From Acidobacteriota bacterium (GTDB lineage Bacteria; Acidobacteriota; Vicinamibacteria; Fen-336), in the NCBI GenBank assembly GCA_003222275.1, contig QHVJ01000150.1, positions 10,518 to 74,517 on the forward strand: a stretch of DNA of 64,000 nt. The letters run 5' to 3'. The notes below the pieces were generated by a model. It saw nothing but the letters and a program-made list of their open reading frames with translations, was not told the origin of the DNA and made no database searches. Shown here one piece after another: positions 4,451-51,448 of this stretch (positions are counted from its first letter, which is position 1; every line of letters begins with the position of its first letter). The position numbers were made by a program, and so were the translations under genes.

Positions 4451-5338
4451 TCAGGCCGCGGTCCGCGAAGCGCCCATGGCCTCGAGCCCGCGGCGCACCG
4501 TGGCCGAGGGAGACAGGGCCAGGAAGGAGCGGTGATGCTGGTGGCTCCTTTCGAGGAAGAACGCCTCCTCTTCGCGGGCCGCGGCGGCGAGCGACGCCTG
4601 GCCCCGGGCGACGGCGGCCGACGCCTGGCGGCCCATCCAGCACGAGAGCACGTGGGCGTCCCGGACGTGGCCGAGCGCGTCCTGGAGCTGCCGGAAGAGC
4701 GCCGGCGCCTCGCTCGTCTGGCCCGTCATCTTCTCGGCCAGCTCGGCCGCGTAGCGAAGCCGGCGCAACCGGATCCGAAGGCGATGCAGCGGGGCGGGGT
4801 CGAAACCGTCGCCCAGGGCCTCGAGCGACTCCAGGATGGCGGTGCCGCGCACGTCCCGCGCGTCGCGCAGGCGAAGAAGCGCGGTGAAGACCAGCTCCGC
4901 CCGGTGGGAGACGACGACCCGCAGGTCGCGCCGCACGCGAGCGATGTCGATGTCCATGAGGGCCTCGGCCATCCGGACCCGGCTCCGGCTGCGCGCCGAC
5001 CGCAGGCGCTGGCGCAGCGTGCGCCGCTCGGCCTCCGTCTCTCCGCGCTCCCTCAGCCGCTCGTCGAAAAGGGCGACGCCGACGTCGAGGTCGCGGCTCG
5101 TCCCCGCCGAGCGCGTCAGCTCGCGCAGGATCCGGCGGGCCCGGCGCACCCGCCGGCCGTTGGGCTTGCGGGCGAGGAGCGGCAGCGCCACGCGCAACCG
5201 GCGGCCCGCCACCCGCATCTGGTGGATCGCCTCCTCGTCGCCGGCCAGGGCCGGCGGGAGCTGGCGGAAGAGGGCCCGGACGTGTGCCTTCAGTAGGGGA
5301 GTGGCGTGATCGACGATGGTCGTGGGCACGGCAGTCAA
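4451..5338 (-). CDS. CHAD domain-containing protein (polyphosphate-granule associated)
   Basis: CHAD signature with conserved His/Arg: HQMRVAGRRLRVAL, RLRIRLRRLRYAAEL. Basic helical protein of 295 aa. Confidence 0.8.
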   Translation of the reverse strand: MTAVPTTIVDHATPLLKAHVRALFRQLPPALAGDEEAIHQMRVAGRRLRVALPLLARKPNGRRVRRARRILRELTRSAGTSRDLDVGVALFDERLRERGETEAERRTLRQRLRSARSRSRVRMAEALMDIDIARVRRDLRVVVSHRAELVFTALLRLRDARDVRGTAILESLEALGDGFDPAPLHRLRIRLRRLRYAAELAEKMTGQTSEAPALFRQLQDALGHVRDAHVLSCWMGRQASAAVARGQASLAAAAREEEAFFLERSHQHHRSFLALSPSATVRRGLEAMGASRTAA

Positions 5339-5433: not shown

Positions 5434-7002
5434 ATGAGGATCGCCGCCATCGACATCGGCAGCAACTCCTTTCACATGGTCATCGTAGAGAGCCGCTCCG
5501 GCGGGTTCCACGTGATCGACCGCGAGAAGGAGATGGTCCGCCTCGGCGAGCGCACGCTTTCGCGGGGCCGGCTGTCCGCGGCCTCCATGCGGCGGGGACT
5601 CGACGCGCTGCGCGAGTACAAGCGGCTGGCGGACATGCACGGCGTCGACAAGCTCCTGGTCGTGGCCACCTCCGCCGTGCGCGAGGCCGCCAACGGCGAG
5701 GATTTTCTCGAGCGTGTGGGCGGGGAGATCGGCTTCTATCCGCAGGTCGTCTCGGGCGAGGAAGAGGCCCGGCTGATCTATCTGGCCGCGCTCCACAGCG
5801 TCAACCTCGAGGGGCGGCGTACCCTGGTGGTGGACATCGGCGGGGGCAGCGTGGAGCTGGCCATGGGGGTGGGCCCCCAGGTGGAGTGGGCCGTCTCCGA
5901 GAAGCTCGGCGTGCTGCGAATGACCGAGCGCTTCGTCCACAGCGACCCCCTGGCCGCCCGCGACGAGCGGCGCCTGGTCGGCTACGTGAGGCAGTTCATG
6001 GTGCCGCACGCCGCCCGGGCGCGGGACGACGGCTTCGACCTCGTGGTCGGGACCTCGGGGACAGCCTTGGCCCTGGGGGCCATGGCCACTGCAGCGGGAA
6101 TACTACCCGAATCGCTCCACCACCTGACGGTGCCGGCGGCCGCTCTTCACGCCCTGCGCCGGCGCCTCGTCGGGACCACGCTCAAGGGGCGCCGGCGGCT
6201 GCCCCTCATGGACGAGCGGCGCACCGACATCATCGTGGCCGGCGCCGTCGTGCTGGACGAGATACTCGACGCTCTCGAGGCGAAGGAGATCGTCCTCTGC
6301 GAGTGGGCGCTGCGCGAGGGGTTGCTGCTCGACTACTTGACGGGCCACAAGCGCGCGGTCGCGCGCGCCGAGGCGTACCCCGACGTTCGCCGCCGCAGCG
6401 TCGTGGCCCTGGCCGAGCGCTGCCATTTCCACGAGGCGCACGCGCGGCAGGTGGCCGCCCTCGCCCTGGGCCTGTTCGACGCGACGGCGTCGCGGCACGG
6501 TCTGCAGGCACCGGAGCGCTCGCTGCTCGAGTACGCCGCGCTCCTTCACGACGTCGGCCGGCACATCTCCTATCCCGACCGGCACCGGCACACCGAGTAC
6601 CTCGTCCGCAACGGCGGGCTGCGCGGCTTCGATCCCCGCGAAGTCGAGATGATGGCGCTCGTGGGGCGCTATCACCGGCGCGGCGTCCCGCGGAAGAAGA
6701 ACCTGGCCTTCGCCGCGCTGGCCCGTCCCGACCGCGAAGCCGTGCGCATGATGGCGGGGCTCCTGCGGCTGGCCGACGCGCTCGATCGCAGCCATCGCGG
6801 CGTCGTCAAGGCGGTGGCCGTCTCCGAGACGTCACGGGGCCTGCGCTTGCGCTGCGAGGCGGAGGGCGACGCCGGCCTGGAGCAGTGGGCGTCGGGACGG
6901 CGGGTCGATCTGCTGGAGCGCGCGCTCGACCGGGCGATCCAGGTCGAATTCGCGCCCGTGCCCGCGGCCACCGCGGTGCGCGCGCGAGCGGCGGGCGCCT
7001 GA
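5434..7002 (+). CDS. ppx: Exopolyphosphatase / guanosine pentaphosphate phosphohydrolase (Ppx/GppA) with C-terminal HD domain
   Basis: Ppx/GppA N-terminus IAAIDIGSNSFHMVIVE...VATSAVREAANGEDF. HD region LLHDVGRHISYPDRHRHTEYL. Confidence 0.85.
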   Translation: MRIAAIDIGSNSFHMVIVESRSGGFHVIDREKEMVRLGERTLSRGRLSAASMRRGLDALREYKRLADMHGVDKLLVVATSAVREAANGEDFLERVGGEIGFYPQVVSGEEEARLIYLAALHSVNLEGRRTLVVDIGGGSVELAMGVGPQVEWAVSEKLGVLRMTERFVHSDPLAARDERRLVGYVRQFMVPHAARARDDGFDLVVGTSGTALALGAMATAAGILPESLHHLTVPAAALHALRRRLVGTTLKGRRRLPLMDERRTDIIVAGAVVLDEILDALEAKEIVLCEWALREGLLLDYLTGHKRAVARAEAYPDVRRRSVVALAERCHFHEAHARQVAALALGLFDATASRHGLQAPERSLLEYAALLHDVGRHISYPDRHRHTEYLVRNGGLRGFDPREVEMMALVGRYHRRGVPRKKNLAFAALARPDREAVRMMAGLLRLADALDRSHRGVVKAVAVSETSRGLRLRCEAEGDAGLEQWASGRRVDLLERALDRAIQVEFAPVPAATAVRARAAGA

Positions 7003-28986: not shown

Positions 28987-30009
28987 ATGAGAGCTCGAGA
29001 CGCGGCCGTCGCCCTGGCCCTCGCCGCCGCCGCGGCCGTGCCCGCGGCCGCCCAGAACCTGCAGATCAACGGGGCGGGCGCGACGTTCCCGTATCCGATC
29101 TATTCCAAGTGGTTCTCCGAGTACAACAAGCTGCACCCGACGATCCAGATCAACTACCAGTCGATCGGGTCCGGCGGGGGCATCCGGCAGCTCACCAACC
29201 AGACGGTGTTCTTCGGGGCCAGTGACGGCCCGATGACCGCCGATCAGATCCAGGCGGCGGGGGCCCGAATCCTGCACTTGCCGGCCGTGCTGGGCGGCGT
29301 GGTTCCCGTCTATAACATCCCCGACCTTTCCGGCGAGCTCCGTTTCAGCGGGCCGCTCCTGGCCGACGTCTTCCTGGGCAAGGTCACCAGGTGGAACGAT
29401 CCGGCCATCGCCCGCGAGAACCCCGGAGTGACGCTTCCGGGGAGCGACATCACGGTCGTGCACCGGTCGGACGGATCCGGCACCACGTACATCTGGGTCG
29501 ATTACCTCGCGAAGGTGTCGCCGGAGTGGAAGCAGAGGGTCGGGGTCGCGACCTCCGTCAACTGGCCGGTGGGAGTGGGCGGCAAGGGCAACGAGGGCGT
29601 GGCGGGCCTCGTCAAGCAGACACCCGGATCCATCGGCTACGTCGAGCTGATCTACGCCCTGCAGAACAAGATCGCATATGGCGCGGTCAGGAACATGGAC
29701 GGCAATTACGTGAAGGCGTCGCTCGACACGATCACCCAGGCCGCGGCCGCCACTGAAGGAAAGATGCCGGCCGACTTCCGGGTCTCCATCACCAACGCAC
29801 CCGGCAAGAACGCGTATCCGATCGCTTCTTTCACCTGGCTGCTCTTCTACGAGTCGCCGAAGGACAAGGATCGGGCGCGGGCGATGGTGGACTTCATGAA
29901 ATGGGCGCTCGGCGACGGCCAGAAATACGCCGCGGATCTGGGCTATGCCCCGCTGCCCGCCAGTGTGGTGAAGCTGGAGCTGGCCGCGCTCAGCCGGATC
30001 AAGATTTAA
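28987..30009 (+). CDS. pstS: Phosphate ABC transporter substrate-binding protein PstS
   Basis: GAGATFPYPIYSKWF...SIGSGGG...HRSDGSGTT PstS motifs; signal peptide. Confidence 0.9.
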   Translation: MRARDAAVALALAAAAAVPAAAQNLQINGAGATFPYPIYSKWFSEYNKLHPTIQINYQSIGSGGGIRQLTNQTVFFGASDGPMTADQIQAAGARILHLPAVLGGVVPVYNIPDLSGELRFSGPLLADVFLGKVTRWNDPAIARENPGVTLPGSDITVVHRSDGSGTTYIWVDYLAKVSPEWKQRVGVATSVNWPVGVGGKGNEGVAGLVKQTPGSIGYVELIYALQNKIAYGAVRNMDGNYVKASLDTITQAAAATEGKMPADFRVSITNAPGKNAYPIASFTWLLFYESPKDKDRARAMVDFMKWALGDGQKYAADLGYAPLPASVVKLELAALSRIKI

Positions 30010-30081
30010 CGCAGCGTTAACCGGGGCGCAATGCGTCGTTTACCTCGGCGGCCTATTGTTGGGTGATCCCAGGAGACGCCA

Positions 30082-31164
30082 ATGACTCGCTCCCTCCGTC
30101 GTCTCGTCGTCCTCTGGGCCGGCCTGGCCGCCGCCTGTTCGGGCGGCGGGGCGCCCCAACGTCAGACCTCGACGCTGCCGGCCGGCGAAGCGTCCGCCGG
30201 TCCCTCGGCCGCTCCGGGGCAGATCAACGGCGCGGGCGCCACGTTCCCGTACCCCATCTACTCGAAGTGGTTCTCGGAGTACAACAAGATCCGTCCCGAC
30301 GTCCGGATCAACTACCAGTCGATCGGCTCGGGCGGCGGCATCCGCCAGCTCACCAACCAGACGGTCTTCTTCGGCGCCACCGACGGGCCCATGACCGAAG
30401 AGCAGCTGAAGGCCGCTCCGGGCCCGATCGTCCACCTGCCCACGGTCCTGGGGGGCGTGGTGCCCGCCTACAACCTGTCCGGCCTTTCCGCCGAGCTGCG
30501 CTTCAGCGGGCCCCTCCTCGCCGACATCTTCCTGGGCAAGGTCAAGAAGTGGAACGACCCGGCCGTGGCCAGGGAAAACGCGGGCGCGAAGCTTCCCGCC
30601 ATGGACATCACCGTCGTGCATCGTTCGGACGGCTCGGGCACCACCTACATCTGGGTGGATTACCTCTCGAAGGTCTCGCCGGAGTGGAAGGACCGGGTCG
30701 GGGTGGCGACGTCGGTGAACTGGCCGGTGGGCGTGGGCGGGAAGGGCAACGAGGGCGTGGCCGGCCTCGTCAAGCAGACGCCGGGATCCATCGGCTACGT
30801 CGAGCTGATCTACGCCACCCAGAACAACATCGCCTACGGCTCGGTGAAGAACGCGGCCGGCAAGTACGTGAAGGCCTCCCTGCCCTCGGTGACGGCGGCG
30901 GCCGCCTCCAGCGTCGACACGATGCCGGCCGACTTCCGCGTCTCGATCACGAACGCTCCCGGGGAGGACGCGTATCCGATCTCGTCCTACACCTGGCTGC
31001 TCCTCTACGAGCATCCCGCGGACAAGGAACGCGCGCGCATCATCGTGGACTTCATGAAGTGGGCCCTCACGGGCGGCCAGAAGTACGCGCCCGAGCTCGG
31101 CTACGCGCCCCTGCCCGAGAAGGTCGTCGGGCGGGAGCTCGAAGCCCTCACGAAGATCGGATAG
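30082..31164 (+). CDS. pstS: Phosphate ABC transporter substrate-binding protein PstS (second paralog, lipoprotein-type signal)
   Basis: About 80% identical to the upstream PstS over the mature domain; lipobox LAAAC. Confidence 0.9.
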   Translation: MTRSLRRLVVLWAGLAAACSGGGAPQRQTSTLPAGEASAGPSAAPGQINGAGATFPYPIYSKWFSEYNKIRPDVRINYQSIGSGGGIRQLTNQTVFFGATDGPMTEEQLKAAPGPIVHLPTVLGGVVPAYNLSGLSAELRFSGPLLADIFLGKVKKWNDPAVARENAGAKLPAMDITVVHRSDGSGTTYIWVDYLSKVSPEWKDRVGVATSVNWPVGVGGKGNEGVAGLVKQTPGSIGYVELIYATQNNIAYGSVKNAAGKYVKASLPSVTAAAASSVDTMPADFRVSITNAPGEDAYPISSYTWLLLYEHPADKERARIIVDFMKWALTGGQKYAPELGYAPLPEKVVGRELEALTKIG

Positions 31165-32112: not shown

Positions 32113-32972
32113 AGACGACCGCCTACGACCTGCGCCGGCGCGCCACCTCCCGGGCGGTGGAGATCTTCTGCGCGGCCTCGGTCGTCCTGGCCCTGGTGCC
32201 GCTCGGCCTCATCCTGTTCTTCGTCGTGCGCCAGGGGCTGCCCGCCCTGCGTCCGGCTTTCTTCACCCAGATGCCGAAGCCGGTGGGCGAGCCCGGGGGT
32301 GGGATGGCCAACGCGATGGTGGGCACCCTGATCCTCCTCGGCCTCGCCGCCGCGCTCGCGGTGCCCGTGGGGATCGTGAGCGGCGTGTTCCTCTCCGAGT
32401 ACAAGGGCAGCCGCATCGGCTCCGCCGTCCGCTTCGCCGCCGACGTTCTCAACGGCGTGCCCTCCATCGTCATCGGGATCTTTGCGTACACCGTGGCCGT
32501 GCTCCCGTTCCAGCGCTTCACCGCGCTGGCGGGAGGCCTGGCCCTGGGAGTCATGATGCTGCCCCTCATCGTGCGCACGACCGAGGAGCTGCTGCGCCTG
32601 GTGCCGGAATCCTTCCGGGAAGGGGCGCTCGCCCTCGGCGCCACCCGCTCCCGGGCGGTCTGGACGGTGATCCTGCCCGCCGCCCTGCCCGGCATCCTCA
32701 CCGGTGTCCTGGTGGCCCTGGCCCGGGTGGCGGGGGAGACGGCGCCGCTGCTCTTCACCTCGCTCAACAACCGTTTCTGGTCGACGCGCCTCGACCAGCC
32801 GATCGCCTCCCTGACGGTGCAGGTCTACACCTACGCCAACTCCCCCTACGACGACTGGCACCGCCAGGCCTGGGCGGGAGCGACGGTGCTCATCGCCTCC
32901 GTCCTGACTTTCTCCCTGCTCGCCCGGTTCGTCACCCGGCGCCTGGAGCGAATGCATCGAGGGACCGTATGA
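32109..32972 (+). CDS. pstA: Phosphate ABC transporter permease PstA
   Basis: ATGA overlap with pstC; PstA family TM pattern. The 30063..32972 ORF upstream of 32109 is alternate-frame noise over pstS/pstC. Confidence 0.9.
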
Positions 32973-33808
32973 GCCGCGACGTCGAGACGCCCGCCGATCC
33001 CGGCATCCGGATCCGGACCGAGGTGCGGGCGTCGGAGGCGCCGCGGGCGGCGGCCAGCACCGCCATCACGCTCCAGGGGGTCAACTTCAGCTACGGGCCG
33101 AACCAGGTCCTGCACGACGTCTCCCTGGACGTGGACGAGAAGCGCGTGACCGCCTTCATCGGGCCGTCGGGGTGCGGGAAGTCCACGCTACTGCGCTGCC
33201 TCAACCGCATGAACGACCTCATCGAGAGCGCCCGCCTCGCGGGCAGCGTACGGGTGAAGGGCCAGGACATCTACGCCCCCGGCACCGACGTCATCGCCGT
33301 CCGGCGGCGGATCGGGATGGTGTTCCAGAAGTCCAACCCCTTCCCGAAGTCGATCTTCGACAACGTGGTCTATGGGCTCCGCATCAGCGGGGTCCACGAC
33401 CGCCCGACGCTGGAGGCGGCCGTCGAGAAGAGCCTCACGCTGGCCGCGCTGTGGGACGAGGTGAAGGACCGGCTGCACCAGAGCGCGCTGTCGCTGTCGG
33501 GCGGCCAGCAGCAGCGGCTCTGCATCGCGCGCGCCATCGCGGTCGAGCCGGAGATCCTCCTCATGGACGAGCCCTGCTCGGCCCTCGACCCCATCGCCAC
33601 CCTCAAGATCGAGGAGCTGATCTACTCGCTCAAGGAGCGCTACACGATCGTGATCGTCACCCACAACCTGCAGCAGGCGGCGCGCGTCTCGGACAAGACC
33701 GCCTTCTTCTGGCTGGGACGGCTGGTCGAGTACGGCCCGACCGTCGACCTCTTCACCAACCCGAAGGAGAAGCTGACCGAGGACTACATAACTGGCCGAT
33801 TCGGCTAG
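32969..33808 (+). CDS. pstB: Phosphate ABC transporter ATP-binding protein PstB
   Basis: Walker [10 protein letters not shown]; LSGGQQQRL signature; Walker B LLMDEP. Confidence 0.9.
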
Positions 33809-33818
33809 AGGAGTGAAT

Positions 33819-33873
33819 GGCAGCACTCAGCAGTCAGCACTCAGCAAATGCTGAACGCTGATCGCTGAGCGCT
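33819..33873. repeat. Heptad-periodic palindromic repeat element (CAGCANT x4 / GCTGANC x4 arms), copy A
   Basis: Intergenic between pstB and phoU. The left arm is tandem 7-mers and the right arm is their inverted complement; the same architecture recurs at 38791..38877. Confidence 0.5.
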
Positions 33874-33889
33874 ACCGAACGAGGAAGAC

Positions 33890-34600
33890 ATGGAGGAACG
33901 TCGAGCGAGCGACCAGCGCCGCCATTTCGAGCGGCATCATTTCGAGGAGGAGCTGCAGGCGCTCAAGAACCGCCTGCTGAACATGGGCGCCCTCGTCGAA
34001 GAACGGGTGCACGACGCCACCCATGCCCTCATCGAGCGCCGGCTGGATACGGCGGAACGCATCATCGGCTCGGACCAGGACGTCAACGACCTGCAGATCG
34101 AGATCGACGAGCGGTGCCTGCGCCTGCTCGCCCTCCAGCAGCCCATGGCCTCCGACCTCCGGCTGATCACCGCGGCCATGAAGATCAACGCCGACCTCGA
34201 GCGGATCGGCGACCAGGCCGTGAACATCGCCGAGCAAGCGGTGCGCATCCTGGCCCACCCGCCGCTCAAGCCCATCATCGACCTCCCGCGCATGGCCGAG
34301 ATCTCCGAGCGGATGACCCGCGAGAGCCTCGACGCCTTCGTGCGCAAGGACGCCAAGCTGGCCCGCGCCATCCTGGCCCGCGACGACGAGGTGGACCAGC
34401 TCAAGGACCAGGTGTTCCGGGTGCTGCTCACCTACATGATGGCCGACCCCGGCACCATCGAGCGGGCCCTCGGCCTCATCCTGATCAGCCGGCACCTGGA
34501 GCGCATCGCCGACCATGCCACCAACATCGCCGAGGACGTGATCTTCGTGGTGGAGGCCAAGGACGTCCGGCATCACCACGAGGAGAGGCCGGGCTCGTGA
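33890..34600 (+). CDS. phoU: Phosphate signalling complex protein PhoU
   Basis: Two PhoU repeats with (D/E)xxxD motifs (ADLERIGDQAVNIAE, LERIADHATNIAE). Confidence 0.9.
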   Translation: MEERRASDQRRHFERHHFEEELQALKNRLLNMGALVEERVHDATHALIERRLDTAERIIGSDQDVNDLQIEIDERCLRLLALQQPMASDLRLITAAMKINADLERIGDQAVNIAEQAVRILAHPPLKPIIDLPRMAEISERMTRESLDAFVRKDAKLARAILARDDEVDQLKDQVFRVLLTYMMADPGTIERALGLILISRHLERIADHATNIAEDVIFVVEAKDVRHHHEERPGS

Positions 34601-37885: not shown

Positions 37886-38788
37886 GTGCGCATGCGCATC
37901 GTGGTGACGGGGGGCACCGGCTTCATCGGCCGGGAGGTCGTGGAGCGCCTGCTGGAGACCGGCGACGACGAGGTCGTCGTGACGACCCGCCATCCCGACC
38001 GCGATCCCTGGGGCGGGCGGGTCCGGCTGGTCCAGGCCTACGCGGGTGATCACGTCAGCCTGGGGAAGGCGTTCATGGGCGCCGCCGTCGTCGTCCACGC
38101 CATTCAGTTCCCGAACCATCCCGTCGAGGATCCGGCGAAGGGACGCACCTACCTCGAAGTCGACGGGCGCGGCACGACGCTGGCCGCGCAGACGGCCAAG
38201 AAGCTGGGCGTGCGCCGCTTCGTCTATCTTTCGGGCGCGGGCGCGGGCCAGGGGCGGCCGCAGCCGTGGTTCCAGGCCAAGGACATGGCGGAGGCGGCCA
38301 TCGTCGCCACCGGCATGGAGCACGTTCTCCTGCGCCCCTCGTGGATCTACGGCCCGCGGGACCGGAGCATGAACCGCTTCGTCTCCTTCTGCCGGCACCT
38401 GCCGGTGGTGCCGGTCATCGGCAACGGCCGGACGCCGGTCTACCCGGTCTACGTGAAGGACGTGGCGCGCTGCGTCGTCGAATCCGCTCGCCGCGAGGAC
38501 GCCACTGCCCGGAAGCTGGACCTGGGCGGGCCGCAGCGGATGACGATGGACGAGGTCATCCGCGCCATCCAGGATGTCCTGGGGCGCCGCCGGCCGCTGC
38601 TGCACCATCCCGTGGGCCTGATGAAGCTGCTCGTGCTTCCGATGAAGGTCATGCCGGAGCCGATGCTGTCGTCCTCCGCCATCGACTTCATCACCCAGGA
38701 GGTCGAGCTCGATCCGCGGCCGGCCATGGACTACTTCGGGTTTCCCTTCCGGCCGCTCGCCGAAGGGCTGCGGGAATATCTGCCCTAG
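37886..38788 (+). CDS. NAD(P)-binding atypical SDR / NmrA-like epimerase family protein
   Basis: Rossmann TGGTGFIG N-terminus; complex I NDUFA9-like SDR family features. Confidence 0.65.
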   Translation: MRMRIVVTGGTGFIGREVVERLLETGDDEVVVTTRHPDRDPWGGRVRLVQAYAGDHVSLGKAFMGAAVVVHAIQFPNHPVEDPAKGRTYLEVDGRGTTLAAQTAKKLGVRRFVYLSGAGAGQGRPQPWFQAKDMAEAAIVATGMEHVLLRPSWIYGPRDRSMNRFVSFCRHLPVVPVIGNGRTPVYPVYVKDVARCVVESARREDATARKLDLGGPQRMTMDEVIRAIQDVLGRRRPLLHHPVGLMKLLVLPMKVMPEPMLSSSAIDFITQEVELDPRPAMDYFGFPFRPLAEGLREYLP

Positions 38789-38790
38789 AA

Positions 38791-38877
38791 GCAGTCAGCA
38801 ATCAGCGTTCAGCGGTCAGGATGGCAACGGAACTCCTCTGGCTGAGCTGATGGCTGATTGCTGATTGCTGAGCGCTG
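38791..38877. repeat. Heptad-periodic palindromic repeat element (TCAGCNN arms), copy B
   Basis: gcagtcagcaatcagcgttcagcggtcagg ... gctgagctgatggctgattgctgattgctgagcgctgc. Inverted arms of tandem 7-mers, immediately after the SDR stop and before ispH. Confidence 0.5.
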
Positions 38878-38892
38878 CCGTATTCTCTCTAC

Positions 38893-40092
38893 GTGAGCCA
38901 GACGTACTTCCAGAAGGGCTTCGGCCTGCGCTCCGCGGTGGGTCCCGTGCTCTCCGAGAGCTACGACAGCCGCGTCGTGGACCGGCTGCGCGAGCTGGGG
39001 CACACGGCCCGGGCGGGGGACCTCGTCCTCAAGCTCGCCCGCGAGTTCGGCTTCTGCTACGGCGTCGACCGGGCCGTCGAGTACGCCTACGAGACGCGGC
39101 AGCAGTTTCCCGAGCGCCGGATCTTTCTCTCCGGCGAGATCATCCACAACCCGGAGGTGAACGGGCGGCTGGAGGCCATGGGCGTCCGCATCCTGCCTCC
39201 CGCCCACGATCCGGGCGTGCGCTACCGGGACGTGGATGCGGGCGACGTCGTCCTGCTGCCCGCCTTCGGGGTGCCGGTCGCGGAGATGGCGCACCTGCGC
39301 GGCAAGGGCTGCGTGCTCGTGGACACGACCTGCGGCAGCGTCCTCAACGTCTGGAAGAACGTCCACAAGTACGCGCGCGACGGGTTCACGGCCGTCATCC
39401 ACGGCAAGCACCATCACGAAGAGACCAAGGCCACCGCCTCCCAGGCGCTGACCCACGGCGGGGGCCACTACCTCTGCTTGAAGGACAAGTCCGAGGCGGC
39501 GGAGGTCTGCGAGTTCATCCGCGGGGTGGGGGAAGGCGAGGACCTGCGCCGCCGGTTCGCACACGCCACGGACCCCGGCTTCGATCCCGTCCGCGACCTC
39601 GCGCGCATCGGCCTCGCCAACCAGACCACGATGCTCATGAGCGAGAGCCTGGAGATCCAGGAGATGCTCCGCTCCGCCATGCGCCAGCGCTACGGCGAGG
39701 CGGAGCTGCCCGCCCGTTTCCAGGCGATGGATACCATCTGCTCGGCGACCCAGGACCGGCAGGACGCGGTCCTCAAGATGCTCGACGAGGGCGGCCTCGA
39801 CCTGATGGTCGTGATCGGCGGCTACAACAGCAGCAACACGCAGGCGCTGGCCCGCATCTGCACGGAGCGGCTGCCCACGTACCACATCGACGGCGCATCC
39901 TGCATCGAGCCGGAGCTGATCCGCCATCAGCCCGTGGGGAGCCACGCGGAGTCCCGCACGGCGGCGTGGCTGCCGGCGGGGCCGCTGCGCATCGGCCTGA
40001 CCGCCGGTGCGTCCACGCCCAACAACGTCGTGGGCGAGGTGGTGGCGCGGCTCCTGGCGTTGCGCGGGCTCCGCCCGGCCGACCTGTCCTAG
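38893..40092 (+). CDS. ispH: 4-hydroxy-3-methylbut-2-enyl diphosphate reductase IspH (long form)
   Basis: Conserved IspH blocks GFCYGVDRAV, IIHNP, VDTTCGSV, ANQTT, GGYNSSNT. GTG start. Confidence 0.85.
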   Translation: MSQTYFQKGFGLRSAVGPVLSESYDSRVVDRLRELGHTARAGDLVLKLAREFGFCYGVDRAVEYAYETRQQFPERRIFLSGEIIHNPEVNGRLEAMGVRILPPAHDPGVRYRDVDAGDVVLLPAFGVPVAEMAHLRGKGCVLVDTTCGSVLNVWKNVHKYARDGFTAVIHGKHHHEETKATASQALTHGGGHYLCLKDKSEAAEVCEFIRGVGEGEDLRRRFAHATDPGFDPVRDLARIGLANQTTMLMSESLEIQEMLRSAMRQRYGEAELPARFQAMDTICSATQDRQDAVLKMLDEGGLDLMVVIGGYNSSNTQALARICTERLPTYHIDGASCIEPELIRHQPVGSHAESRTAAWLPAGPLRIGLTAGASTPNNVVGEVVARLLALRGLRPADLS

Positions 40093-45219: not shown

Positions 45220-45223
45220 CCGG

Positions 45224-45370
45224 CTTTTCCACGCAGAGGCCGCAGAGGATACGCAGAGGCCGCAGAGGGCAATGAAGAAGAGCCAGATCCGCATCGAGGA
45301 TCGGCGGCCATCGTCATGCTCTCGTTCTCTGCGGCCTCTGCGGACTCTCTGCGGCCTCTGCGTGGAAAAG
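45224..45370. repeat. GC-rich palindromic MITE-like element, family CGCAGAGG (copy 2, about 147 bp, near-perfect 44-bp terminal inverted repeats)
   Basis: cttttccacgcagaggccgcagaggatacgcagaggccgcagagg ... ctctgcggcctctgcggactctctgcggcctctgcgtggaaaag. The arms are tandem 9-10-mers CGCAGAGGNN. Abuts the epimerase stop, and its right end supplies the ATG of the next gene. Confidence 0.6.
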
Positions 45371-45372
45371 CA

Positions 45373-46722
45373 ATGGTACTGACGCCGGCGGAGGCCAAGC
45401 GGAAGCTGGTCCACATGGCCGTGGGCTCCTTCGCGCTCCTCCTCCGCTTCATGACGTGGCGTCAGGCCGCCTTGATGGCCGTGGCCGCCTTCTTCTTCAA
45501 CTGGCACGCGCTGCCGCGCCTCGGCGGACGCGGGTTGTGGCGGGAGGCGGATCACGGCCGCGGCTACCCGCTGGGCATCCTCCTCTATCCGCTCGCGGTG
45601 CTCGCCCTCGTCCTCGTCTTCCACGACGAGCTGTGGAAGGCGGCCGCGGTGTGGGGCCTCCTCGCCATCGGCGACGGCATGGCCGCGTTCTTCGGCCTCG
45701 CCGCCGGAGGGCCGCGCCTGCCGTGGAACCGTGACAAGAGCTGGGCGGGATTTCTGGCCTTCGTCGTGTTCGGCACCATGGCCGCCTCGGTGCTCGCCGC
45801 GTGGACGCTGCGGCTGCCTCTCGTCGCGGGGGCCTCGGCGCGCATCCTCGCCGTGATCGTCCCCGCGGCGCTCGTTTGCGCCCTGGTCGAGTCCATGCCT
45901 ACGACGCTCGACGACAACCTCACGGTGCCCCTGGTGGGGGCGGCGGCCATCGCTCTCTTCTCGCTCGCCGAGCCGGCCCGGCTCCTCGAAGACCCCGAGG
46001 CCGGCCCGCGCCTCCTCCTCGGGCTCGTCGTCAACGGCGTGATCGCGATGGCCGCCCGCGCGACGTCTTCCCTCGACACCGCAGGAGCGGTCTCGGCCGT
46101 GATCATCGGCACCGCGATCACGGCCGGGCTCGGGCTGGCGGGCCTGCTTCTCATGATCGCCTTCTTCGTGCTCGGCAGCGCGGCCACCCGCCTGGGCCAT
46201 GCCCGCAAGACCGCGCGCGGGATCGCGCAGGAAAAGGGCGGAGCCCGCGGATGGCGCAACGCGTGGGCGAACGGCAGCGTGCCGGCGGTCCTCGCGCTGA
46301 TGGCCGCGATGGCGCCCTCCGAGCTGAGAGCGGTCTTCACGCTGGCCTACGCGGCCGCGGTCGCCACCGCCGCCGCCGACACCTGTTCCTCCGAGGTGGG
46401 GAAGGCCTATGGCGACCGGACCGTCGTCATCGCCACCCTGCAGCCGGCCCCACCCGGCACGGAAGGAGGGGTGAGCCTCGAGGGGACGCTGGCCGCGGCC
46501 GCGGCGGCGGCGCTGGTGGCGGCGATGGGGCCCGTGGGGCGGCTCTACGCCTGGACGCTCGTCCCGCTCGTCGCCGTGGCCGGTGTGCTGGGCAGCCTGG
46601 CCGAGAGCGTTCTCGGCCCGGTGGCGGAGCGCCGGGGCTGGATGGGCAACGACGTGCTGAATGTCTTGAACACGGCATTCGGTGCCGCGATCGCCGTATT
46701 GATGCTGCGAGTGCTGTCTTGA
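45373..46722 (+). CDS. Polytopic membrane protein: N-terminal CTP-dependent phytol/dolichol-kinase-like region fused to a DUF92 (TMEM19-like) domain
   Basis: Start MVLTPAEAKRK. Multiple TM helices; DUF92-like C-terminus (ARGWRNAWANGSVPAVLAL...AAADTCSSEVG). Confidence 0.55.
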   Translation: MVLTPAEAKRKLVHMAVGSFALLLRFMTWRQAALMAVAAFFFNWHALPRLGGRGLWREADHGRGYPLGILLYPLAVLALVLVFHDELWKAAAVWGLLAIGDGMAAFFGLAAGGPRLPWNRDKSWAGFLAFVVFGTMAASVLAAWTLRLPLVAGASARILAVIVPAALVCALVESMPTTLDDNLTVPLVGAAAIALFSLAEPARLLEDPEAGPRLLLGLVVNGVIAMAARATSSLDTAGAVSAVIIGTAITAGLGLAGLLLMIAFFVLGSAATRLGHARKTARGIAQEKGGARGWRNAWANGSVPAVLALMAAMAPSELRAVFTLAYAAAVATAAADTCSSEVGKAYGDRTVVIATLQPAPPGTEGGVSLEGTLAAAAAAALVAAMGPVGRLYAWTLVPLVAVAGVLGSLAESVLGPVAERRGWMGNDVLNVLNTAFGAAIAVLMLRVLS

Positions 46723-50268: not shown

Positions 50269-50283
50269 GGCTAGGCCAATGGT

Positions 50284-50398
50284 CTTTCAACGCAGAGGCC
50301 GCAGAGGAACGCAGAGGCCGCAGAGAACAGTGACGTCATTTCCCTTTCTCTGCGTCCTCGAACCGGGTTGCCTTCTCTGCGTTCTCTGCGTTGAAAGG
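50284..50398. repeat. GC-rich palindromic MITE-like element, family CGCAGAGG (copy 3, 14-bp perfect TIR CTTTCAACGCAGAG)
   Basis: ctttcaacgcagaggccgcagaggaacgcagaggccgcagag ... ctctgcgttctctgcgttgaaagg. Lies between the mtnA 3' end and the tsaD start. The mtnA stop codon and last ~21 codons lie inside the element. Confidence 0.6.
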
Positions 50399-51448
50399 CA
50401 ATGCGGCGATCCGGGCCAGGCTCTCGGTGTAGGGCTCCCGGGCGATTCCGTTCTCGGTGATGATCGCGCTGACGTAGCGGTGGGGCGTGACGTCGAACGC
50501 GGGATTGCGCACCGCGACGCCTTCGGGGGCCATGCGCCGCCCGCCGTGGTGGGTCACCTCCGCGGCCGCCCGCTCCTCGATGGGAATGCCGTCGCCCGAG
50601 GGAGTGGCGAGGTCGATCGTGGAGACGGGCGCGGCCACGTAGAAGGGCAGGCCGTTCTCGTGGGCGAGGACGGCCACGGTGTAGGTGCCGATCTTGTTCG
50701 CGACGTCCCCGTTGGCGGCGATGCGGTCGGCTCCCACCACCACCGCGTCCACCTCTCCCCGCGCCATGAGGTGGCCGGCCATGCTGTCGGCGATGAGCGT
50801 GGTGGCGATCCCGTCCTGGGCCAGCTCCCATGCCGTCAGCCGCGCGCCCTGCAGGTGGGGACGGGTCTCGTCGGCGAAGACGTTCACCACCTTGCCCTGC
50901 CGCGCCGCGGAGCGGATCACCCCGAGGGCGGTGCCGTAACCTGCCGTCGCCAGCGCCCCCGCGTTGCAGTGGGTCAGGAGCCGGGCCCGAGGTGGGATCA
51001 GCTCCGCTCCGATGTCGCCCATGCGCCGGCACGCGGCGAGGTCCTCGGACTGCATCGCCAGCGCCTCGTCGAGCAGCGCCTGCCTGACGGCGGCGCCGCC
51101 GCGAGCCTGCTCGGTCTCGAACCGGCGGCGCATCCGCGCGATGGCCCAGAACAGGTTGATGGCGGTCGGGCGCGTGGACGCGAGCTCCTGGCAGATGCCG
51201 TCGAGCTCGGCGCGCAGCGCGGGCCCTTCCCCCGCCGCGTTGCGCACGCCCAGGGCGATGCCGAAGGCCGCGGCCACGCCGATGGCGGGCGCGCCCCGGA
51301 TGGCCATGTCCTTGATCGCGGCCGCCACCTCCGCGTGGCTCCGGCAGCGGATCATCACCTGCTCGGCGGGCAGCCGCCGCTGGTCGATGAGCACCACTTC
51401 GCCGTCCTGCCACTCCACGGTGGGGACCATTCGAGGATCGTAATGCAA
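50336..51448 (-). CDS. mtnA: S-methyl-5-thioribose-1-phosphate isomerase MtnA (eIF-2B alpha/beta/delta family)
   Basis: [16 protein letters not shown]-terminus and eIF2B-like Rossmann core. The start may be Met7 (51430). The C-terminal ~21 residues are encoded by the repeat element. Confidence 0.8.

Follow-up and report, generated by a model that had tools for sequence, protein, structure and literature searches.

TCAGC-heptamer tandem-arm hairpins at operon junctions of an Acidobacteriota bacterium and their occurrence across bacterial phyla and phages

A 64,000-nucleotide stretch of an Acidobacteriota genome (contig QHVJ01000150.1, positions 10,518 to 74,517; hereafter the window) carries two copies of a palindromic element whose arms are tandem heptanucleotide arrays, TCAGCNN on the left and NNGCTGA on the right. 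One copy lies between pstB and phoU, and the other lies between a gene of the short-chain dehydrogenase/reductase (SDR) type and ispH. A preliminary description of the window had proposed that operon junctions in it carry a family of repeats whose arms are heptanucleotide tandems, and this proposal was borne out. Here we describe the anatomy, distribution, placement, polymorphism, and conservation pattern of the family, whose grammar recurs in at least 17 phyla and in phages. Tentatively, with a probability of roughly 0.4, we read the window copies as dispersed non-coding repeats resembling repetitive extragenic palindromic (REP) sequences, which would spread by duplication-free copying, be remodelled by slippage, and form an interrupted stem-loop on the operon mRNA with probably modest effects.

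Results

Structure of the two copies in the window

Both copies had been noticed in the preliminary description, and we confirmed them with slightly wider limits. Copy 1, in the pstB|phoU spacer, spans 33819–33876 (no strand is assigned to the hairpins described here). Its left arm (33820–33847) consists of four units, GCAGCAC, TCAGCAG, TCAGCAC, and TCAGCAA; its loop is AT (33848–33849); and its right arm (33850–33876) consists of three units, GCTGAAC, GCTGATC, and GCTGAGC, followed by GCTACC, with GGCAGC/GCTACC as the outermost pairing. Copy 2, in the SDR|ispH spacer, spans 38790–38879 and has a left arm (38790–38822) of AGCAG, TCAGCAA, TCAGCGT, TCAGCGG, and TCAGGAT, an 18-nt loop (38823–38840), and a right arm (38841–38879) of GCTGA, GCTGATG, GCTGATT, GCTGATT, GCTGAGC, and GCTGCC. 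Common to both is a plan of approximately four TCAGCNN units, a loop of 2 nt or 18 nt, and approximately four NNGCTGA units. The copies also share the terminus GCTGAGCGCTRCC, which can be written GCTGAGCGCT(A/G)CC, and the right terminus of copy 2 (GCTGAGCGCTGCC) matches that of copy 1 (GCTGAGCGCTACC) at 12 of 13 positions. The earlier statement that the left arm is followed by its inverted complement held for the 5-nt cores but not for the two variable bases, which are not systematically complementary.

When the window was scanned for TCAGCNNTCAGCNNTCAGC with up to two mismatches, all 10 matches fell within copies 1 and 2, against 0.18 expected, and none of 100 shuffled windows reached 10 matches. 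Tandem Repeats Finder (TRF) detected period 7 in each of the four arms. The predicted RNA folding energies were −35.4 (plus strand) and −45.9 kcal/mol (minus strand) for copy 1 and −51.2 and −44.1 kcal/mol, respectively, for copy 2, with z-scores of −3.4 to −8.0 relative to shuffled sequences on either strand; as DNA, copies 1 and 2 folded at −16.4 and −25.5 kcal/mol. The G+C content of the window is 70%. No match to Rfam 15 was obtained at the gathering score across the whole window, and the use of E-value thresholds yielded only sub-threshold miRNA-like noise (E 0.5–5). An assembly artefact was rejected, since independent assemblies (loci L001 and L124; loci outside the window are cited by such numbers where necessary) were identical and diverged forms were present in orthologous spacers. 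The window locus was found in three soil assemblies of the European Nucleotide Archive. Its PhoU protein was 100% identical to one from an Acidobacteria MAG (metagenome-assembled genome), and close relatives of this protein carry the label Vicinamibacteria.

Because of the period of 7, the 3′ arm contains TGA in every reading frame, whichever strand is read. An all-frame TGA stop cassette was considered as an explanation of the element and rejected, because it accounts for neither orientation nor placement; the TGA pattern is a property of the sequence only.

Grammar of the element in genomes and viruses

We scanned one genome per species of GTDB for (TCAGCNN)3-N2-32-(NNGCTGA)3 and found the TCAGC hairpin grammar at at least 120 loci in at least 17 phyla, and IMG/VR contained 76 matching viral stretches. 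The cross-phylum sets were chosen by the search pattern itself, and nearly all carriers were metagenome-assembled genomes (MAGs). Among the matches listed, approximately 35 were from Acidobacteriota and every record was a MAG; also listed were Nitrospirota, Planctomycetota, Gemmatimonadota, Verrucomicrobiota, Chloroflexota, Bacteroidota, Elusimicrobiota, Binatota, Alpha-, Beta-, and ‘Delta’-proteobacteria, Myxococcota, Deinococcota, Chlamydiota, Actinomycetota, Omnitrophota, and Zixibacteria. A search of this type combined with structure prediction had been suggested in the preliminary description, and it yielded many further copies with stable predicted hairpins. The accompanying idea of a generative mechanism peculiar to this genome is contradicted by the same distribution and by the approximately 35 other cores found in the same loci (see below).

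The anatomy of 247 elements (128 genomic and 119 viral) is summarized by the consensus [AGCTN](TCAGCNN)n-loop-(NNGCTGA)n[NAGCT], with a modal n of 4 and a range of 3–6, seldom more. In a search that demanded at least three units per arm, left arms of 3, 4, 5, and 6 units were found in 17, 76, 33, and 2 elements, and right arms of these sizes in 25, 65, 28, and 8 elements, respectively. The mean was 4.2 units per arm in genomes and 4.5 in viral contigs, and the unit numbers of the two arms were weakly correlated (rho 0.16 and 0.26). The loops, of 0 to more than 30 nt, were unrelated to one another. Throughout the set TCAGC was fixed and NN was variable. NN was biased overall toward TA, TT, CA, CG, TC, and TG, and its repertoire was lineage-specific: TCAGCAN units prevailed in the lineage of the window, TT, GG, and AT in one phage, and TT, CA, and CG in Pseudoalteromonas.

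Watson-Crick pairing of NN between the two arms of an element was 41.7%, compared with 39.6 ± 1.7% for arms taken from unrelated elements, and a second test gave 40.9% versus 41.3%. Perfectly complementary arms were found in 3 of the 247 elements (0.7 expected). Since the NN spacers pair no better than chance, the stem is a series of 5-bp helices separated by 2 × 2 internal loops. The agreement with the control also indicates that the arms are not copies of each other, and a fold-back origin by arm copying was rejected on this ground. The orientation of the cores was nearly invariable, with 250 TCAGC-first pairs and one GCTGA-first pair; when the one search-selected element per locus was left out, the ratio was 54:1.

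Single arrays with no partner made up 29% of the arrays in viral loci. Their orientation relative to transcription was 30 versus 13, a comparison confounded by the ORF calls, which swallow sense-TCAGC arrays. A BLAST search with the consensus element gave no match in cultured phages and matched a single replicon among plasmids, the 899-kb replicon p1 (NZ_CP077771.1) of the cultured gammaproteobacterium Pseudoalteromonas shioyasakiensis, which holds direct TCAGCYN arrays of up to 28 units at 22 places by BLAST. These arrays (e.g., L280 2964–3157 and 3694–3712; L281 5896, 36284, and 49880) use only TT, CA, and CG as NN. Several short arrays of this replicon are followed by a common (C)GTCAGACGCGCGAAACA, as though lying within a larger repeat. 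A search of the open-access literature for the repeat strings returned only primers.

Placement relative to genes

ORFs around the elements were called heuristically (greedy longest ORFs of at least 90 aa). None of 108 elements lay inside an ORF; 68 occupied co-directional, 26 divergent, and 14 convergent spacers. In the co-directional spacers the element began a median of 4 nt past the upstream stop codon and ended a median of approximately 15 nt before the next start, and some elements shared the upstream stop TAG with an outer TAGCNN unit. The proportions of the spacer types were close to the usual ones, with no enrichment in convergent spacers, and therefore give no sign of terminator or promoter specialisation. 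Such a placement would be expected if the elements had inserted into originally short spacers and only those landing between the stop codon and the ribosome-binding site had survived. The pooled logo showed a mild enrichment of A ahead of the element and of T after it, which is due to the adjacent stop codons.

Polymorphism at the pstB|phoU and SDR|ispH junctions

A metagenome scan with PhoU retrieved 80 orthologous loci. At pstB|phoU the element was present in the window, in L124, and in L125 (97% PhoU identity), with the same unit number in L125 as in the window. L131 (95%) carried 3 + 3 units with a 25-nt loop; L177 (77%) carried 4 + 3 units with the boundary ACGGCAGC in place of ATGGCAGC; and a minimal version of the element was found in L140 and L142 (86–88%), in which a GC-rich inner hairpin is flanked by arms of a single unit each. 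The element has persisted over 77–100% PhoU identity, its arms counting 1, 3, or 4 units, and its loops varied strongly among orthologues. It was absent from L126–128, L130, L132–135, L138, and L160, where the spacer measures 7–17 nt. Filled and empty orthologous sites coexist among relatives at 94–97% protein identity. In particular, L134 (TAGAGG|CGAACGAGGACGACATG) resembles an exact empty counterpart of the window allele, with no duplication at the junction; the comparison with the window has the appearance of a clean insertion, non-repeat bases included.

Between the window and L125, none of the 42 core positions had changed, compared with 6 of 12 NN positions (Fisher p = 3.6e-5); 3 of 32 flanking positions had changed as well. 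L003 has one additional TCAGCAG unit and is otherwise identical to the window. L002 also has extra units at pstB|phoU, together with a scaffold gap (a run of N at approximately 480–490) in the left arm, the extra units being on the far side of the gap. Such repeats break or confuse short-read assemblies, and unit counts in MAGs need to be treated with caution.

The SDR|ispH spacer was empty in L160 (95%). In L127 (96%; approximately 6500–6770) only the last right-arm units of the TCAGC element remain, and the rest, comprising the left half, is replaced by a hairpin with arms of CGCGGAGG units, whose ends TTCAACGC...GCGTTGAAAGG match another repeat family of the window (at 50279–50402; see below). 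The two spacers are hot spots in which repeat families replace one another. Other fillers were seen in the pstB|phoU spacers of L139 (CGCAGAG type) and L136 (GAGAG-rich).

Examination of possible mechanisms

The preliminary description had ascribed the elements to slippage-built hairpin miniature inverted-repeat transposable elements (MITEs). The MITE part of this proposal did not hold, as no target-site duplication was found and unit order is not shared within a genome. The longest direct repeat in the flanks averaged 3.31 nt, versus 3.25 ± 0.07 nt in controls, and was thus not enriched, and none of 127 elements was bordered by adjacent duplications of 3–5 nt. Slippage agrees with the length change by one 7-nt step in L003 but does not account for the whole origin, given the non-copied arms, the 250:1 orientation across phyla, and the relation between neighbouring units. 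Neighbours had the same NN in only 14% of cases, compared with 18–20% at lag 2–3 and approximately 9% for random pairs. Adjacent units are rarely identical; therefore, the arrays are not fresh slippage products, and fresh slippage was rejected as their origin.

The similarity of elements within a genome was 0.404, whereas it was 0.409 after the unit order was shuffled and 0.248 between genomes. Thus, the elements of one genome share an NN repertoire but not its order. Copying of a whole element was seen directly in rare pairs only, namely in L059 and in two in-frame copies of a phage gene described below.

For 40 co-directional spacers with tight packing, the predicted RNA folding energy was −41.5 kcal/mol on the sense strand and −41.4 kcal/mol on the antisense strand (p = 0.52). 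This lack of a strand difference means that there is no signature of RNA-strand-specific selection, and the idea that G-U pairs favour the sense strand found no signal in the same comparison. A terminator scan called neither window copy, and no U-tract occurs at either one (copy 1 is followed by CGAACGAGG and copy 2 by GTATTCTCTC).

A siphovirus with elements throughout its late operon

IMG/VR contigs 3300045933_000102 (17 kb) and 3300045936_000120 (34 kb) represent the same siphovirus, which encodes a large terminase, portal, MuF-like protein, prohead protease, HK97-type capsid, tail tube, tape measure, and two DNA methylases. A TCAGC hairpin is present at nearly every junction of its co-directional structural genes, and the elements make up approximately 6% of the genome. 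With an element at each late-operon junction, transcription must read through the elements. Several genes of this phage begin 0–9 nt past the last GCTGA without a Shine-Dalgarno (SD) sequence.

Two copies lie in frame inside the MuF-like head-morphogenesis gene (L210 6318–6400 and 6625–6700; the same phage as L238, approximately 7105–7020 on the minus strand). Their left arms are translated (MASYQQSAISDQ... and GGQQSAISGQ...), and both the start codon and the protein's N-terminus (MASYQQSAISDQPNAELKADKLKADRF) come from the first copy. A right-arm unit of 8 nt (GCTGACAA) brings two units to 15 nt together, and TGA is never in frame (LKADKLKAD). The common NN order and the 8-nt unit indicate that the two copies are paralogous.

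Among 20 ORFs scanned in this element-saturated siphovirus, no gene for a transposase or for a ribbon-helix-helix (RHH) or other repressor was found, only a MerR-like helix-turn-helix (HTH) gene. In L217 a MerR-type HTH gene (4617–5153) is located in the middle of the head-tail module, between an HK97-gp10-like gene and a tail-completion gene, an unusual place for a regulator. In another viral contig, L209 (1800–2700 and 7870–8860), single TCAGC and GCTGA arrays alternate from junction to junction (R, F, R, F), and its convergent arrays enclose whole small ORFs of 100–130 aa instead of a short loop.

Other tandem-arm hairpin families

An unbiased scan of approximately 1.4 Mb for (core + 2 N) × 3 followed by two reverse-complement cores, with periods of 5–12, showed that period 7 is nearly exclusive among tandem-arm hairpins. 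Besides TCAGC, it revealed in the same loci approximately 35 hairpins with other 5-nt cores and a few octamers. The cores include GGATG, GGAGT, AAGTT, CGATT/AATCG, GGATT, AAGGC, CAGGT, GTCCG, GTTCT/CAGTT, CAGTG, CTAGC, TTAGC, AGGGT, and GAGTG; examples, from L004–L123, are located at L005 6062, L012 3915, L058 3721, 5322, 6305, and 6829, L076 6061 and 6566, and L110 6788. Nesting also occurs, as ATTGA arms enclose a TCAGC element at L022 7654 and a comparable arrangement is found at L117 7784. L103 (5641–5800) contains a long GTAAC(G/C)A array.

The window itself contains two hairpins with CGCAGAGG arms. The first, at 45223–45371, has a period of 9–11 and the ends GCTTTTCCA...TGGAAAAGC; it begins 4 nt past a stop codon (45219) and ends 2 nt before the ATG at 45374. 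The second, at 50279–50402, has the ends TTTCAACGC...GCGTTGAAAGG, and its relative is the hairpin in the SDR|ispH spacer of L127. As had been noted in the preliminary description, these elements have the same architecture as the TCAGC hairpins; their unit is longer, and their stop-to-start placement is equally tight. The two families are related in design and not in sequence, and the 9-mer family, with its conserved ends, behaves more like a classical mobile repeat than the TCAGC family does.

Genes flanking the window copies and a mini-ORF

All flanking genes are encoded on the plus strand. pstB (32969–33808; ABC ATPase, Pfam ABC_tran) ends with TAG at 33806–33808, 10 nt upstream of the stem of copy 1, and phoU (33890–34600; Pfam PhoU) starts with ATG at 33890, 13 nt downstream of it. 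When the flanks were included in the predicted fold, the phoU SD sequence GAGGAAG and the ATG were unpaired. The NAD-dependent epimerase/SDR-type gene (37886–38788; Pfam NAD-epimerase) ends with TAG at 38786–38788, 1 nt upstream of copy 2, and ispH/LytB (38893–40092; Pfam LYTB) has a GTG start 13 nt downstream.

A 14-codon mini-ORF (MAALSSQHSANAER*; 33817–33861, plus strand), preceded by AGGAG, begins at the left edge of copy 1, crosses the left arm and the loop, and is closed by the right arm's first in-frame TGA. L125, L131, L140, and L142 all keep the left boundary ATGGCAGC and an ORF whose end falls within or beyond the right arm. This putative mini-ORF may serve as a ribosome relay from pstB to phoU or may be a relic.

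Upstream of copy 1, at 28987–31164, two adjoining PstS-like phosphate-binding genes (both PBP_like_2) are followed by pstC, pstA, and pstB, and a two-component system (a response regulator and a PAS/HAMP histidine kinase) is encoded between phoU and the SDR gene.

Discussion

From these observations we infer the transcription of the elements, their folding as RNA in vivo, their mode of spread, and their effect on expression as follows. An element would enter a short stop-to-start spacer as a unit, by copying without target duplication, the candidates being transposition of single-stranded DNA hairpins (of the type of REP with REP-associated tyrosine transposases [RAYT] or of IS200) and template switching between arrays. 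Selection would remove all insertions other than those between stop codon and ribosome-binding site. Slipped-strand mispairing and unit exchange would later alter the arms 7 nt at a time, with the five core bases staying constant as the bases that pair or are recognised. Transcribed in the operon mRNA, the element would fold as 5-bp helices broken by 2 × 2 internal loops and would behave not as a terminator but as an intercistronic stem-loop of the type of REPs and bacterial interspersed mosaic elements (BIMEs). Its likely effects are those of a barrier to 3′-exonucleases or a processing site, and the upstream stop could be brought near the downstream start. Any influence on the expression of pstB/phoU and SDR/ispH would probably be modest. 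Descent through copying is the simplest explanation of the fixed orientation of 250:1 (or 54:1).

Several findings weigh against this reading. Neither a target-site duplication nor a transposase was identified, and the elements of a genome share their unit repertoire but not its order (0.404 vs. 0.409). RNA folding showed no sense/antisense asymmetry, and nothing specifically indicates selection at the RNA level. Solo arrays, both in viral loci and as the direct arrays of Pseudoalteromonas, mean that the hairpin is not obligatory. The devotion of approximately 6% of a phage genome to elements argues for a benefit and not for mere tolerance.

The element could instead be a selected cis-regulatory RNA device, kept for a particular task in polycistronic mRNA, either a processing or stabilising site of the RNase III type, as in the intercistronic hairpins of T7, or a hairpin that couples stop and start, in which a ribosome terminating approximately 4 nt upstream would melt the hairpin and the next cistron would be translated only after the previous one. 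This explanation, which we consider rather unlikely, fits the position of the stop at approximately −4 and of the start at approximately +15 from the stem base, the presence of one element per junction across a phage late operon, the phage genes that start 0–9 nt past the last GCTGA without SD, the conservation of the cores with free NN, and the retention of the element over 77–100% PhoU identity. The periodic mismatches would also make it a poor substrate of RNase III and a stable 3′ cap, and TAACTGA heptamers near start codons have been proposed to act in translation (PMC4679880). However, many close relatives, whose spacers measure only 7–11 nt, manage without the element, the RNA strands show no asymmetry, structure alone does not explain the fixed core orientation, divergent and convergent spacers are occupied roughly in proportion to their number, and solo arrays exist. 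A bidirectional intrinsic transcription terminator at gene ends is very improbable: the element is indeed a stable stem-loop directly past stop codons, with mild A-before/T-after enrichment in the pooled logo, but the adjacent stop codons account for that enrichment, the window copies lack a U-tract and were not called by the terminator scan, convergent spacers are not enriched, and the elements occupy internal positions of operons (pstSCAB-phoU) and, in a phage late operon, each of the junctions.

Origin in situ is unlikely as well. Here, a hairpin or seed in the spacer would be expanded by replication slippage with a preference for 7 nt or by reiterative break repair, leaving the arrays as scars or by-products. 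The lack of target-site duplication and of a unit order shared within a genome agrees with such an origin, as do the graded unit numbers (1, 3, and 4) seen at a single orthologous site whose boundary is unchanged, the 7-nt polymorphism between strains, the variable loops of orthologues, and the dominance of period 7 in the 1.4-Mb tandem-arm scan. According to papers citing Mrazek (2007), the heptamer excess has been ascribed to polymerase slippage, and extension of both 3′ ends of a break with the same unit would give the fixed convergent orientation and the independent arms. On the other hand, the recurrence of one core, one orientation, and the AGCTN boundary in phages and at least 17 phyla is not accounted for by local slippage; adjacent units match in only 14% of cases, below the level at lag 2 or 3; L134 compared with the window looks like a clean insertion; and the in-frame copies of a phage gene are paralogous. 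We regard as doubtful the further possibility that the arrays, as duplex DNA, load a protein in a cooperative filament by which gene junctions are marked or silenced. The omega repressor of pSM19035, an RHH protein, binds WATCACW heptads, and the stoperators of mycobacteriophages offer a comparison for junction arrays that load a filament. Like operators of omega, the TCAGC arrays are made of contiguous 7-bp units with a 5-bp core in direct and inverted arrangement, and the binding of omega depends on orientation; unlike them, they lie mostly inside operons, whereas omega heptads belong to the promoters of one plasmid family with its cognate protein. Exact 7-bp phasing with five fixed and two free positions, independent arms, a strict orientation rule, a narrow unit number of approximately 4, the occurrence of solo arrays, and an array or array pair at every junction of one phage would suit a heptad-binding protein. 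Dozens of cores in the same genomes, however, would demand dozens of proteins; carriers as distant as Acidobacteriota, Bacteroidales, and phages have one core in common but are not known to share a factor; most copies are located between stop and start within operons, not at promoters; and the scanned phage ORFs include no RHH or repressor gene, only the MerR-like HTH. Finally, it is decidedly improbable that the arrays are the product or target of a conserved sequence-specific machinery common to phages and many phyla. An enzyme of this kind, acting in the manner of telomerase or reiterative repair synthesis, could add (TCAGCNN)n to the two 3′ ends at a break or hairpin, in which case convergent independent arms, a genome-specific repertoire in random order, a variable loop, and the lack of target duplication would follow. 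Alternatively, a heptad-reading protein or an RNA-binding factor could mark gene junctions.

The closest precedent for the TCAGC family is the (GGGANTN)n arrays of Xanthomonas, followed by the STRRs (short tandemly repeated repetitive sequences) of cyanobacteria. Rehm et al. (2015) described approximately 185 arrays per Xanthomonas genome, among them 70–75 convergent pairs on opposite strands in X. campestris and X. axonopodis (GGGAATC) (PMC4692102). The 7-nt units have five conserved and two variable positions with a clear preference for four units, 89–93% of the arrays are intergenic, the upstream ORF being approximately 28 nt away, close relatives differ in array length and sequence, and the arrays are transcribed, with function unknown (PMC4692102). 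The TCAGC family agrees with them in its 7-nt units, 5 + 2 positions, approximately four units, convergent pairs, and intergenic location near the end of the upstream ORF. Rehm et al. favoured G-quadruplexes and also found GGGGA(C/T)T in Nostoc (PMC4692102). Unlike the Xanthomonas core, which can form G-quadruplexes, the TCAGC core has no G run, a feature of the core and not of the architecture. Therefore, neither the design nor the four units can be explained in general by a G-quadruplex. The TCAGC family also differs from the genus-confined Xanthomonas arrays in being distributed over at least 17 phyla and phages.

Like the TCAGC elements, STRRs (Mazel 1990) are intergenic tandem heptamers that can occur in both arms of a stem and vary in copy number between strains. 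They differ in their cores (CCCCAGT, TTGGTCA, and TTTTGAA), in being mostly direct arrays, and in their restriction to one phylum. Roles of STRRs in translation or transcription are proposed but unproven. STRRs are also said, in work of Vioque from 1997, to lengthen helix P12 of RNase P RNA. Heptamers near start codons are known from Nostoc (bioRxiv 2022.06.06.494920), and MacGregor (2015) described TAACTGA direct repeats in marine Beggiatoaceae, Cyanobacteria, and Bacteroidetes (PMC4679880). TAACTGA resembles TCAGC as an intergenic CTGA-core heptamer within a few nucleotides of starts, with a patchy cross-phylum spread and no known transfer mechanism; in contrast to TCAGC, it forms 169 direct sets versus one indirect set and all its seven positions are fixed (PMC4679880).

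With regard to function, the REP, BIME, and REPIN sequences of Enterobacteria and Pseudomonas may be the best analogy. They are likewise short imperfect palindromes, often in convergent doublets, intercistronic or 3′ to genes, without target-site duplication, and REPs are transcribed stabilisers or attenuators of mRNA with hundreds of copies per genome. Unlike the TCAGC elements, REPs have no tandem heptamers, are nearly identical within a genome, and are tied to RAYT transposases. MITEs and foldback elements (Correia and Nezha, or Drosophila FB, whose inverted ends are tandem repeats) share with the TCAGC elements their small size, non-coding nature, inverted arms, insertion polymorphism, and nesting. 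They are distinguished by target-site duplication, arms that are copies of each other, and a master sequence, of which the unit order within genomes gives no sign for TCAGC, although no search for an insertion sequence (IS) partner was made.

Among the long simple repeats of bacteria, those of seven nucleotides are the most over-represented, and the TCAGC elements belong to this little-studied class, which is a general feature of bacterial and phage genome organisation and not a curiosity of two genera. The orientation rule, the independent arms, the unordered repertoire of each genome, and the lack of target duplication are constraints on any mechanism proposed for it. In practice, the elements can mislead gene callers at starts and stops and break metagenome assemblies. 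In the cell, they probably tune expression within operons such as pstSCAB-phoU.

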